Below, one piece after another: positions 3,172-56,303 of a DNA stretch of 64,000 nucleotides. Origin of the DNA: Octopus vulgaris (taxonomy: Eukaryota); contig OX597816.1 in the NCBI GenBank assembly GCA_951406725.2, positions 18,662,001 through 18,726,000 of the forward strand. Reading direction: 5' to 3'. The translations under genes were made by a program, and so were the position numbers. The notes under the pieces were generated by a model that was not told the origin of the DNA, did no database searches, and saw nothing but the letters and a program-made list of their open reading frames with translations. The first letter of the stretch is position 1, and each line of letters opens with the position of its first letter.

Positions 3172-3262
3172 TTTTAGCTGATGAGTACGGGACACTTTTA
3201 TCTGCTGCAATTTTTGCAACTTGTAATAAAGCCTGTCTTTGTATGAAACAATTGTACTAAAA
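3172..3262 (+). ncRNA. Type I hammerhead ribozyme, extended stem II, loop III AAUU
   Basis: Stem I UUUUAG/CUAAAA; CUGAUGA 3178-3184; stem II GUACGGGACA..UGUCUUUGUAU; GAAA 3245-3248; stem III AC-AAUU-GU; cleavage triplet GUA ending 3256. Confidence 0.82.
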
Positions 3263-3467
3263 ACTAATCCATTCTTGTTGCTTCTTTCTCGTTTATAATC
3301 GCCCCACATTACTGTATGGTTAACACCATATAGTTTTCCGGTGCATCTAAGTTAAGTACCACATTCAAGTAAATTCATTGGAATTGACTTGAATCTTAAT
3401 TGCTTTGATTGTATATATGTGTGTATATATATATATATATATATATATATATATATATATATATATA

Positions 3468-3885
3468 GGCGCAGGAGTGTCTGTGTGGTAAGTAGCTTAC
3501 TAACCAGCCACATGGTTCTGGGTTCAGTGCCACTGCGTGGTATCTAGGGCAAATGTCTTCTGCTATAGCCCCGGGCCGACCAATGCCTTGTGAGTGGATT
3601 TGGTAGACGGAAACTGAAAGAAGCCTGTCGTATATATATATATATATATATATATGTGTTTGTGTGTATGTATATGTTTGTGTGTCTCTGTTTCTCCCTC
3701 TAGCATTGCTTGACAACCAATGCTAGTGTGTTTACGTCCCCGTCACTTAGCGGTTCGGCAAAAGAGACCGATAGCATAAGTACTGGGCTTACAAAGAATA
3801 AGTCCCGGGGTTGATTTGCTCGACTAAAGGCGGTGCTCCAGCATGGCCGCAGTTAAATGACTGAAACAAGTAAAACAGTAAAATA
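3468..3885 (+). mobile_element. tRNA-derived SINE family A (CORE-like central motif), full length
   Basis: Head ggcgcaggagtg..tggtaag..gggttcagt, central gggcaaatgtcttc, internal (TA)n/(TG)n, tail gactgaaacaagtaaaa. Many similar copies occur in the window. Confidence 0.9.
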
Positions 3886-4036
3886 GCATATATATTATGG
3901 AGATGTACTTGCATAGCAAGTGACCAGATCTGAGATCGTGTGCTGGAACGAAAACAATCGCAGCGTGGAAGGTGTTTATAAGCCATTTAAGAAACACACA
4001 AAAACTGTTAGATTCACTTCAAAATTTAAATTTAAC

Positions 4037-4085
4037 TTGTCAAAATATTTTCGTCGCTTTGTGACCGCGACCTGTTCACTAACAA
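4037..4085 (-). ncRNA. Minimal hammerhead-like motif with compensatory G3:C8 core
   Basis: Minus strand reads UUGUUA GUGAACA G GUCGC ggucacaaa GCGAC GAAA AUAUUU UGACAA: stems I and II pair and the stem III region is the palindrome AAAAUAUUUU. Confidence 0.62.
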
Positions 4086-4109
4086 AATTCTGTACCCAAT
4101 TTCTCTCTA

Positions 4110-4328
4110 TAAGGCTTCAGTCGGTCCGAGGGTATAGTAGAACACATTTGTACAAGGTGGAATGCAGTAGAACTGAACCCAGTTCCATGAGGCTGGGAAG
4201 TAAGCTTGTTACTAGTCAGTGACGCTTCGGCTTAAACATATGTGTGTATGTGTGCGTGTCGTTATATACTCTTTTACTCTTTTACTTGTTTCAGCCATCC
4301 GGCTGAGGCCATGCTGGGGCACCGCCCT
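4110..4328 (-). mobile_element. Two degenerate SINE family A fragments (head 4110-4230, tail 4267-4328)
   Basis: Reverse-complement similarity to 3468-3885, for example tactcttttactcttttacttgtttcag. Confidence 0.7.
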
Positions 4329-52753: not shown

Positions 52754-52883
52754 TTTATTATATAGAAGGAGCTTCTACAGGACTAGTACTGTTTCATTCA
52801 AGAGAAATCTTCAGGAAGCTTCCTGAAGATTTCTCTTGAATGAAACAGTACTAGTCCTGTAGAAGCTCCTTCTATATAATAAA
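52754..52883. repeat. Perfect ~130-bp spacerless palindrome containing hammerhead-like boxes
   Basis: Centred on ggaagcttcc; each strand reads CUGAAGA UUUC UCUU GAAU GAAAC AGUA. Confidence 0.93.
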
Positions 52884-54431
52884 TTAATTTTACTCTGCTA
52901 TGTATTGAGTACCTTACTTACTGTGGTTAACCCCGAATCAACCCGGGACCTACATATATATATATATATATATATATATATATATATATATATATATATA
53001 TATATATATATATATATATATATATATATATACTATAATTAACGGTAATAATATTTGTTTAAATTTTTCATGTTCAAGAGACATTTCTTTTAATCGGAGC
53101 GACATGTTTAAAATAAGGAATGCAAACGAGCAAACGTAGTGAATATTTTAGGAATAAATGATATAATGTTATTTTCAACTGAAAATCGCAGAGTATGATT
53201 GTGATACACGTATCATTGAAATATATTTTACTTACTGATGTATTCAACGCAACGCTAAGCGTATTTTTCATATCTTTATTGAATTGCTACTATGTATCAT
53301 TATCGTTAATTTTATGGTAGTTTTTGAGCAGTGGCTCTGATTTTAGTAAATAGTATTATATACCGTGCTGAATCTTAATTTACTTCATATATATATATAT
53401 ATATATATATATATATATATATTGTCATATATAATTGTCACATATTGCATTTACAGATAAATTCCTCTACTTACATAATATCGGTTCCTTTCATTCTTTT
53501 GTTGTCTTACCATTTCTATCAATATATATATATACACACACACACACATATATATATATACATATATATCCATATACATATATATATACATATATATATA
53601 TATATATATATATATATATATATATATACATACGCATGTATATATATATATTCATATACATATATATATTTACATATATACGTCCCTAGACATACATAAG
53701 CACACACCCACGCATACGCACGTATATTCGTGCAGTACAATGACAAATATTCATGCAGATGTTTGAGTGTGCGTTTCTGTCAATTGTGTGGGTGGTTGTG
53801 GATGTTTATCCATAAATATTGTAAGTAAAACAAAATATATGTAATTGCATGTTTAACGCTCTGAATATAGCTACGTTAACATTTTATTGTTTCATGCAAA
53901 ATCAAACAGCAATTTTTATATTTTTATTCATCAGGTATTTGAATTTATTCATTATTTAAATTCTGTTATGAAAGAAGCGCTTAAACGTGTAAGGAATGTT
54001 CTTATATTAGCGAACATTTATTTTTTATTTTTCACTTTAATATCTCAATCAGTGTAAATATTTTAATATCATGCCGTTGGCATAAACAGGCAATTTCAGA
54101 AACCTGATGCAAATGTTTTGTAAAGACCACTAAGTACATTTTCGTCAATATACCTAAGTATGCGTCGCTTGGCAGCTGATAGAATATATCGTTGCACAGC
54201 TGTTAGTAGCAATTGATTTATATGACTACATATTTTGAGTTCAGGTTCCGCTAACGTAAAATATTATATTCGTAATCTTATGTAAATAAATTAAAGAACA
54301 ATCGATTCGTTTAAATTATGCGATAAAGTTATCATCCTATCAAAAATTACCTGGCGTTATATCAATGCCGAAAATATTAAGTGTATATCAGCACTATATC
54401 TAACAAAGTTTTCAATATTATCATTCCTCAT

Positions 54432-54666
54432 CATGACATTTCTGTGATACGCGATGCCTATTGATCGTTTTTCTTTTCATTTCATTCCTGTTTCTTCTTT
54501 CCCTTTTACGATCCCTTTTGATCGAAAACCTACCCCACTTTTTAAATTTATTTATTTTATGTTATTTTTTTAAATCTATTTCTTTATTTTCGTTCTCCCC
54601 ATAAAGAAAAGTGCTACTTTGTAATCTGTCCCGTCTGTGTGCAGCCCTGTGTGGCTAATAAAGAAG
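54432..54666 (+). mobile_element. 5'-truncated non-LTR retroelement 3'UTR with 19-bp TSD
   Basis: TSD caatatt(a/g)tcattcctcat at 54413-54431 and 54667-54685; T-rich body ending cagccctgtgtggctaataaagaag. Confidence 0.8.
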
Positions 54667-56088
54667 CAATATTGTCATTCCTCATTGCTATATAGGCTTT
54701 AATTTATGACTTCGACTACGGTTTCTTTAAATAGGATTTTGTCTCTGATGCAGTTTGCGTGCAATATCTATGTTTATATATATAGCGATATGCGTCCATT
54801 GAAGTGAACTGTTGTTTAGCATCCCTCAAGGGAAACAAAGTATACATATATGTTCGGCATGTCGAGTAGCTGCTGCATAGATTCAGTAATCTCATTAACC
54901 CTTATTTGTATACATGGACAGTAAATTTCTTTGCGGTCTTTGATGTATTATGCACTGGATCTATGTGCTAACCTATGCTGTTACAATTAATGTATCCAAA
55001 TTCGTATCTACATCATTCCGATCTATAAATAACAAATTTACAATTATTTAAGGTGTGTATACATTTTTTTGGGACACCCTGTATATATAGACTATTCCTA
55101 TCATTATGTTTATTATTATTATTATTATTGAGTGAGAGAGCAGTTCATGCCATCAAAGTGACACTGGGGTAAAATATACGAAGCCCACGTATTTAGTTCT
55201 CATATTTGTTTAAAATTTGGACACTAGACCAGCAAGATGAACACGGGGTGGAAGAGTGCTTAATTGGTACATATTTCATCGATCTGAAAAGCAAAGTCGA
55301 CCTCTGTAGAATTTGAACTTAGCCTGTAAAAACGGACACAAAGCCGTTTAGCATTCTTGCTTGCGTGTTGTTGGAAAAGAAATTTATTAAAAGTGCATTT
55401 TATGAGATGAGAAGTTTGCTGTGAAATACAAGAATAGAATCTCTGCACAAGATTTTCTCACCATTGATTTAAACATCTTGTAATACAGAAAGGAAGCCCT
55501 CGAGGGGGATGAGGGCGTATTTTCGGGGCCTGTAGTTATATTCTATTTGTGCTGTGGATGTTCATGAATATTTTATCAGAAAAATATGGTTTTAAGCCAG
55601 TTTTCAACATTGATTTGCAATAGATATTCCTGTAGTAGAGAAGGGCAATGCTTCATTGTGGTGTTCATTTATGCTTGTTTATTGTAATCTTTCGTTTAAT
55701 TCGGGCAATGTTTAAAAAACATGCTTGGGGCTCAAAAGTATCGAAATGTGTTGAAGGGCATATGATATTATCTTTGGAACATACAAGTGTGCCCATATAG
55801 ACATACATTAGACGTGTGAATACTTACATACATACATACATACATACATACATACATACATACATACATACATACATACATACATACATACGTACATACT
55901 GTCTTCTAATTAAATTCCATATATGGAGCTCTGAAATCCCCTTTACCTTATTTCTATAATTAGAAAATTCTTTATTGTCTCTTTCCAATTATTCTTCCCT
56001 CTCAGAATCTTACAGTAGTCTGGAGCAACCGAATCTTAGTCAGTCAGTTGATGGGTTCTACTACCTCAAATGTTCTTAAAATTTAAAT

Positions 56089-56172
56089 CCACATATTTGT
56101 CTATATATCTACCTTCTCTATAATGTTGCCACATCTTTGTCTATATATCTACCTTCTCTATAATGTTGCCAC
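56089..56172 (+). repeat. 40-bp tandem duplication
   Basis: ccacat(a/c)tttgtctatatatctaccttctctataatgttg repeated twice. Confidence 0.93.
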
Positions 56173-56208
56173 TTGATATGAAAATTTTTGTATTAATGGA
56201 AAACCTCT

Positions 56209-56303
56209 GTAATTGGCTGATGAGTACTCAGCATTTTAAAACTGTTGTAATACTTACAACATTTAATAAAATGATGTAGTACGAAACGATCGTACTAAAT
56301 TAC
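56209..56303 (+). ncRNA. Type I hammerhead ribozyme, extended stem II, loop III GAUC
   Basis: Stem I GUAAUUGG/CUAAAUUAC (one bulge); CUGAUGA 56217-56223; stem II GUACU..CAUUUUA..UGUUGUAA-UAC-UUACAACA..UAAAAUG..AGUAC; GAAA 56283-56286; AC-GAUC-GU; triplet GUA ending 56294. Downstream sequence is homologous to that of the 3172 hammerhead. Confidence 0.87.

Follow-up and report, generated by a model that had tools for sequence, protein, structure and literature searches.

Hammerhead ribozymes with a long stem II in Penelope-like elements and tandem repeats of Octopus vulgaris: self-complementary loops that likely serve cleavage as dimers

The window studied here, a stretch of 64,000 nucleotides of the Octopus vulgaris genome (assembly GCA_951406725.2, contig OX597816.1, positions 18,662,001 to 18,726,000 of the forward strand), contains type I hammerhead ribozyme folds with a long stem II and a self-complementary loop III, borne by Hydra-clade Penelope-like elements (PLEs) and by non-coding tandem repeats. 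An earlier reading made from the sequence alone, hereafter the sequence-only reading, had placed five such folds in the window and had seen in their differing loops a possible dimerisation code. We searched both strands with a descriptor made of CUGANGA, a stem II of at most 150 nt, GAAA, a short stem III, UH and stem I. All five folds are present. Four of them, at 3172-3262(+), 15759-15850(+), 18924-19008(+) and 24571-24673(-), have five out of five stem I pairs, and the motif at 56209, with a single mismatch in stem I, was recovered once four out of five were allowed. Each shows the core CUGANGA, GAAA and UH in type I order, and the cleavage sites predicted earlier (after 3256, 15844, 19002 and 56294, and 24577 on the minus strand) agree by counting. 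Over 30 dinucleotide shuffles, the chance expectation was 0.13 matches per window, whatever their loop, and palindromic loops never occurred. Chance folds are rejected on these shuffles and on reversed-pattern controls. The UH cleavage dinucleotide and the letters of the catalytic core hardly vary, if at all, between divergent families; the helices around them covary.

The folds differ in the distance from CUGANGA to GAAA, which holds stem II, and in the segment between GAAA and UH. The fold at 3172..3262 (+) has a 60-nt stem II and loop III AAUU (segment CAAUUG), and lies in the 3' pseudo-long terminal repeat (pLTR) of a Hydra-clade PLE. The fold at 15759..15850 (+) has a 61-nt stem II with an A·C mismatch at its base and the loop GUAC (CGUACG). 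With 54 nt in stem II and the loop AUAU (CAUAUG), the fold at 18924..19008 (+) is a member of the ATAT/ATGT/ACGT family and sits in a short fragment (about 18833-19055) flanked by TA microsatellites. At 56209..56303 (+), stem II has 59 nt, the loop is GAUC (CGAUCG) and stem I contains the mismatch. Stem III had been read as 2-3 bp in all cases; in these four 6-nt cases it amounts to one Watson-Crick pair (C-G) plus the core A15.1-U16.1. The remaining fold, at 24569..24675 (-), has a 68-nt stem II and carries CGGUGCAUCG, which pairs with itself through two G·U pairs. Its loop, read as GUGCAU, is no one-off change from a palindrome: the 488-nt family to which it belongs is fixed for this double-wobble 10-mer in all but one scanned copy, the lone exception being one array end with CGGUUCAUCG. 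The GGCC half-motif noted near 18085 (GAAAC GGCC GUA, approximately 18040..18100, +) is a fragment truncated within stem II, lacking the 5' strands of stems I and II, beside an inverted truncated copy. The window also holds, at 52770-52867, a perfect inverted pair of hammerhead folds not listed by the sequence-only reading, with a 12-nt stem II, U·U at its base, and a 14-nt near-palindromic stem III.

Upstream of the 3172 fold lies a 5'-truncated, frameshifted remnant of a PLE open reading frame (ORF; 553..1755, +), 81-93% to the protein of locus L111, which contains the end of the reverse transcriptase (RT) thumb, an asparagine-rich linker, CxCx5C and a GIY-YIG-type endonuclease. A long 3' untranslated region (UTR; 1756..3171, +), in unbroken alignment to L063 and L111, links the ORF to the hammerhead, and the region 3' of the predicted cut (3263..3415, +) runs up to the distal of two fixed 3' ends, near +240 as counted from the core, and abuts (TA)n. 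At 1..488 (-) lies part of this element's inverted partner copy, which is 5'-truncated, extends to the left of the window and has its hammerhead in L124. We sampled 14 stretches around long ORFs or the window's neighbours, intact relatives being found within L111-L121; six of the stretches (L111, L113-L116 and L119) have the order pLTR(hammerhead)-ORF-pLTR(hammerhead) over about 4.65 kb. Both pLTR hammerheads of an intact element carry the same loop, and in most intact full-length copies this loop is GATT. The L111 protein has 957 aa from its Met, with YRDD at 355 and YIGCT at 852. It also has RWK (37), DKT (124), CxCx5C (818), CxxC (915) and CxH (945), which are Hydra-clade diagnostic motifs (PMC8557442). 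In the 3172 family a single ORF encodes the RT and then the C-terminal endonuclease, and the family shows pLTRs, an inverted partner, two 3' ends and (TA)n insertion. By its motifs and anatomy, rather than by an RT tree, the 3172 element is assigned to the Hydra clade of PLEs. Its identity with Naiad 'HHR_half_core' is ruled out by the C-terminal endonuclease.

Pfam recognised neither the window ORF nor the L111 protein, and gave a weak GIY-YIG match for a relative, P0008. The ORF at L111:1296-4250 carries two insertions that are not seen in marine relatives of 560-800 aa: an asparagine-rich one of about 200 aa ahead of the endonuclease and, following the RT thumb, a shorter one. A piece of PLE RT, 68% identical, is found in P0012, annotated as an ankyrin-repeat protein of Octopus sinensis and probably an artefact of the gene model. 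The 56209 fold belongs to a sister PLE family, of which the window holds a 3' end truncated on its 5' side (55896..56430, ends approximate, +), and the kinship with the 3172 element asserted earlier holds at 71% identity over 197 nt. Links of other families to a PLE ORF are weaker: two copies related to 56209 (L027 and L040) have, some 1.3 kb upstream, the C-terminus of an endonuclease, at 65% to the L111 protein, and one copy related to 18924 (L093) has a Hydra-like RT upstream.

The folds at 24569 and 15759 belong to non-coding tandem repeats. The former lies in 1.4 units of a 488-nt repeat (24339..25005, -) that finishes at a distal fixed 3' end followed by (TA)n; elsewhere this family forms head-to-tail arrays of up to 14 units among the matches listed. 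The latter lies in a truncated single copy of a 586-nt repeat (15668..16074, +, with an approximate right end that includes the TA flank), whose family forms 586-nt tandem arrays elsewhere. The units are non-coding in sense (the longest stop-free frame has 47 aa), have a GC content of 0.37-0.38 and each carry a type I hammerhead, as do non-LTR retrozymes. The folds, the host elements and the arrays thus bear out the earlier attribution to type I hammerheads of the PLE and retrozyme kind. The 488-nt unit also occurs in 14 presumed-RNA contig sets, which we counted neither for nor against since ends, strand and circles are invisible in them. Further tandem hammerhead repeats were found at L228, L268 and L095, repeating every 534, 594 and about 430 nt, and the 594-nt unit has 88% identity to the 586-nt unit. 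In the window, an unrelated repeat (about 15356-15667) adjoins the truncated 586-nt copy; we take its head to be tRNA-like.

The insertion ends are those of PLEs. In the autonomous family the 3' end falls at +119 in 14 of 37 alignment rows and at +240 in another 14, six rows continue into the ORF and three end elsewhere. In the 488-nt family it falls at +221-223 in 11 of 24 rows and at +321-331 in 13, always into TA-rich sequence. These counts include a few rows in which overlapping loci were counted twice, and mapping in the 586-nt family is blurred by the TA flank in the reference. The two fixed 3' ends are the PLE two-end signature. Every mapped insertion end lies downstream of the predicted cut, so the hammerhead in the templates was uncut or had been religated.

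To place these folds in the genome, we scanned the 2.8-Gb assembly with the reversed pattern as control. The pattern CTGATGA-N45-75-GAAAC-NNNN-GTH has 15,470 matches (278 in the control) and the other three core variants (N40-70, GTM) have 23,593 (772 in the control). In total, there are about 39,000 long-stem-II matches against about 1,050 in the controls, and a small share of them is chance or coding. A stem II of 10-39 nt has 14,190 matches against 946 in the control, some of them nested in long ones, and among the matches listed these short-stem hammerheads use the same loop vocabulary as the long ones. Hence the long form is the majority but makes no discrete class: stem II length is a continuum from about 10 to 75 nt, and the long form is a variant rather than a sharp subclass. 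The suggestion that it is a distinct subclass was therefore overstated, and the continuous range rules out such a class. The matches listed also suggest related short-stem and long-stem families differing only in apical stem II insertions.

The long form had also been suspected to escape standard searches. It does: Rfam gave no match within the window at the gathering score, and no hammerhead among the 150 of 170 matches listed at E<=1; the 56209 motif alone scored 18.8 bits against RF00163, whose gathering threshold is 34. The supposed cause fares less well, since Rfam found no hammerhead either in eight out of eight short-stem marine Hydra-type loci tried, so that the failure does not come from stem II length alone. 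The RF00163 miss reflects the scope of the model.

In predicted folds, stem II is a single extended hairpin. It folds better than shuffled sequences in 27 of 48 clusters (z < -2, best-folding member of each). In alignment A1 (26 rows), changes on both sides of a pair occur in seven of 14 basal and two of seven apical pairs, far above slid controls, and in 15 of all 29 pairs of stems I and II, a number reached in none of 500 shuffles. In alignment A2 (29 rows), they occur in five of 10 basal pairs of stem II and in seven of 20 pairs of both stems; this pair count is not above shuffles (186/500), whereas cells and score are. These figures must be interpreted with care, since the structures were drawn from the same sequences, a favourable bias, and related sequences can exceed shuffles without structure. 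The long stem II is real and structured, and it is absent from known Hydra-clade hammerheads. We compared it with 77 marine Hydra-type loci, 58 of which have room after the ORF, allowing for a stem II of up to 120 nt. A 3' hammerhead was found in 36, and all 32 distinct ones have a stem II of 10-25 nt. On present evidence, the expansion of stem II is thus specific to this lineage. The marine hammerheads (L295-L371) are compact, with a self-complementary stem III closing on 1-2 nt, often an odd-length quasi-palindrome, and they too would need a partner.

We then analysed loop III in a census of the matches listed within C1:1-10.84 Mb, where 162 loops were recovered. Palindromes make up 101 of them, a further 41 pair with themselves when G·U is allowed and 20 do neither, while the uniform expectation is 6% palindromic and 8% G·U-compatible. 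A palindrome is the majority loop in 32 of the 48 clusters with at least three of five stem I pairs, a filter that removed 14 of 62 clusters. The sequence-only reading had proposed that the loop changes while its self-complementarity is kept, which is supported here, and had named chance-level palindromy as what would speak against it; 101 of 162 loops are palindromic, and 142 of 162 palindromic or G·U-compatible.

Strand symmetry provides a further test, since mutation after insertion acts alike on both strands and should turn a palindrome into a G·U-compatible loop as often as into the A·C reverse complement of that loop. They are not equally frequent. Genome-wide there are 5357 KK against 1397 MM loops at the inner pair (295 and 268 in controls) and 3548 wobble against 1404 reverse-complement loops at the outer pair (268 and 214 in controls). 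The census has 33 wobble against 3 reverse-complement loops, and among majority loops of the 48 clusters there are eight against one. This excess implies that wobble loops were propagated and that mismatch loops mostly were not. The self-complementarity of loop III is, judged from these counts, under selection, and the excess of G·U loops suggests that the predicted intermolecular helix was selected during transposition. CpG decay as a source of the wobble loops is rejected, because it predicts equal numbers of loops and reverse complements, unlike the 33 and 3 in the census. Adenosine-to-inosine (A-to-I) editing may be a source of A>G loop changes and is not separable from selection for G·U pairs. 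In the census, long-stem families strongly favour purine-first palindromes (AATT, ACGT, AGCT, ATAT, GATC, GTAC, GCGC), and pyrimidine-first loops (CATG, TGCA, TATA, CGCG) were found with a stem II of 43-46 nt.

How might these loops evolve? Two trees built with the loop masked, and with midpoint roots only, provide some clues. In the tree of 38 rows, ACGT is nested in a grade of ATGT that is itself inside ATAT, with starred support. In that of 33 rows, AATT, GATT and GATC interchange repeatedly, with 11 changes where the minimum is three. Read from these trees, loops within families move by single G·U steps (ATAT>ATGT>ACGT; AATT/GATT/GATC).

For hammerheads of the PLE and newt types it is established that a one-pair stem III is too weak on its own and that two copies pair their palindromes (PMC4209133, PMC3088659 Fig. 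S8, PMC6765202). The predicted energies go in the same direction. In the four 6-nt cases hairpin III of the monomer is at +3.0 kcal/mol and the self-duplex at -6.4 to -10.0, and in the 10-nt case (24569) the values are +0.4 and -17.5 kcal/mol. Our reading, to which we give a probability of roughly 0.76, is that these are terminal hammerheads of Hydra-clade PLEs and related non-coding repeats, that they likely cleave only as dimers, and that this would keep loop III self-complementary in the absence of a selected code. Neighbouring copies in a tandem transcript would pair over 6-10 bp and swap stem I strands. Cleavage of the dimer would release unit-length RNA, which would then be circularised, and circles of retrozyme RNA are known (PMC7229834). 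The lone hammerhead at the junction would be nearly inactive after circularisation, so that the RT of the element, starting 40-240 nt downstream of it, could copy through more than once and produce more than one unit. Both partners come from one template and carry the same loop change. Drift over a network of self-pairing loops, by G·U steps from palindrome to palindrome, is then the simplest reading, and the incompatibility of distant families would be a by-product of it.

The putative dimer requirement gains good support from these data. Yet, a number of observations weigh against it. Cleavage, RNA ends and circles are predictions here. Published PLE hammerheads show weak activity, dimers included (PMC4209133), and eight of nine Xenopus retrozyme dimers remained uncut in vitro (10.64898/2026.07.22.740005). 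The PLE hammerhead of a lizard depended on its protein, and insertion in vitro could do without this hammerhead (PMC11167929). At the foot of stem II, the base pair fails to form in 15 of 25 A1 rows and reads A·C in the 586-nt family; catalysis should be slower as a result. The loop totals for the whole genome count copies rather than independent events. The 18924 subfamily is linked to an ORF by a single related copy (L093) with no recognisable endonuclease, and the 488-nt and 586-nt families have no autonomous partner among the loci examined in a genome that was not exhaustively searched.

The diversity of loops could also be read as a dimerisation code, in which loop III and the swapped stem I are selected to differ between co-existing families. 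Cleavage of a family's RNA would then be reserved to its own members, and parasites would have to match their helper. The five window loops are indeed predicted to be orthogonal (self-duplexes at -6.4 to -17.5 kcal/mol, cross-duplexes at -4.7 or weaker), related families differ (3172 and 56209; GUAC and GCGC despite a compatible stem I), and of the 36 cluster pairs whose stem I is compatible, 22 have loops that are not. But four random loops all differ with a probability of 0.55 (copies) or 0.69 (clusters), and the 32 palindromic clusters are headed by just nine of the 16 palindromes (AATT by 7, ACGT by 6, AGCT by 5). Two palindromic clusters share a loop with a probability of 0.12, against 0.06 under even use, and unrelated clusters reuse identical loops. 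Loops are compatible more often when stem I is so (14/36 against 60/559 pairs), a comparison confounded by kinship. Wobble loops, moreover, bridge neighbours: GAUU pairs with AAUU at -6.1 and with GAUC at -7.9 kcal/mol, and it is GATT that is found in most intact full-length copies. By reasoning from the published model, stem I is also formed between partners, so that distant families are already separated by it. Selection for family-specific pairing, as first proposed, is thus not what the data favour: wobble intermediates occur within families, loops are common to unrelated clusters and the differences in the window are expected by chance. We regard such a code as very unlikely. A broader scheme, in which diversifying selection acts on a three-part identity system (the loop III palindrome, the swapped stem I and a long stem II read by the cognate RT-endonuclease), we hold to be unlikely as well; if true, it would decide which RNAs each helper cuts, circularises and mobilises across dozens of Hydra-clade families and retrozyme parasites.

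One might also speculate that what preserves the fold is chiefly a non-catalytic role, as a signal for RNA dimerisation or protein recognition during reverse transcription, with cleavage being marginal. This would fit the position of all mapped insertion ends downstream of the cut (templates were uncut or religated), the frequent mismatch at the stem II foot and the lack of effect of hammerhead mutants on insertion in vitro (PMC11167929). It is at odds with core letters and a UH that stay invariant or nearly so across divergent families as the helices covary, and with arrays of exact units, which fit a circular template needing a defined cut; we find it very doubtful. Alternatively, the long stem II could provide a tertiary contact or stability for cleavage as a monomer, the palindrome being a relic, in line with a stem III that is shorter (6 nt) and a stem II that is longer than in the marine relatives, and with the folding of stem II beyond shuffles in those 27 of 48 clusters. 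A relic, however, would not give a 2.5-3.8-fold excess of wobble over reverse-complement loops, short-stem families of the same genome use the same loops, and folds of the 62 clusters, inspected by eye, share no internal-loop position or sequence across families. We consider monomer cleavage of this kind extremely improbable. The long stem II is a lineage-specific extension of a hairpin kept paired. Our best guess for its role, tentative and somewhat less likely than not, is a family-specific handle by which the element's own protein binds or folds the RNA; otherwise it would be a tolerated expansion.

The octopus genome joins about 39,000 matches, dozens of families, intact autonomous elements and retrozyme-like arrays, and the excess of G·U loops in the strand-symmetry test is of immediate relevance to the dimer model, for which the natural series AUAU/AUGU/ACGU and AAUU/GAUU/GAUC are ready test constructs. 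The large long-stem-II population also indicates that descriptors with short spacers undercount animal hammerheads.

Long-stem-II octopus PLE hammerheads were not found in the literature searched, mostly without subscription papers, and the accessible part of the repeat annotation of O. vulgaris (PMC13282606) mentions neither ribozyme, hammerhead nor retrozyme. The octopus family Hydra-1_Obim is already listed among Hydra-clade PLEs (PMC8557442). As described there, these elements share with ours the C-terminal GIY-YIG-type endonuclease, the motifs RWK, DKT, CxCx5C, CxxC and CxH, the pLTRs, the inverted 5'-truncated partner, the two fixed 3' ends, (TA)n and a type I hammerhead near the 3' end. 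The same source gives their hammerheads a short stem II, and a stem III of 3 bp around a loop of 1-3 nt, whereas in octopus stem II has 40-75 nt and a 6-nt even palindrome makes up stem III. Published Hydra elements are generally below 3 kb, with 30-40 nt between the two 3' ends; the octopus element has 4.65 kb, an asparagine-rich linker, a 1.4-kb 3' UTR and a tail of about 100-120 nt. Long stems II (about 50 nt), marked as non-canonical, are given for the spike-moss elements PLE-X1_sMoe and PLE-X1_sTam (PMC8557442, File S2), but these two cases are unrelated endonuclease-less plant elements lacking the even palindromic loop III.

The 488-nt and 586-nt repeats resemble animal non-LTR retrozymes, proposed to be non-autonomous PLE derivatives (PMC7229834; 10.64898/2026.07.22.740005), in being non-coding head-to-tail repeats of a few hundred nt with low GC and one type I hammerhead per unit. 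They differ from these by their long stem II and by two fixed 3' ends and inverted partners of the PLE type that are seen directly; cephalopods are absent from the groups named for the 35 species in the accessible part of 10.64898/2026.07.22.740005. There is a likeness, too, with the minimal or palindromic-helix-III hammerheads of PLEs (PMC4209133, PMC3088659 Fig. S8, PMC6765202), which have a weak helix III, a palindrome spanning 15.2-16.2 and loop 3, variation within genomes and a proposed dimer cleavage between pLTRs (PMC4209133). In the accessible parts of these three papers helix II has at most 7-8 bp, unlike the octopus stem II of 40-75 nt, and we did not see loop III tested for strand symmetry or traced along G·U steps. 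The palindromic loop III and the dimer cleavage of PLE hammerheads are already published. What appears to be new is a paired and covarying stem II of 40-75 nt, against 10-25 nt in 32 marine Hydra-clade relatives, together with a natural and apparently clean record of compensatory evolution in a helix predicted to form between RNA molecules.

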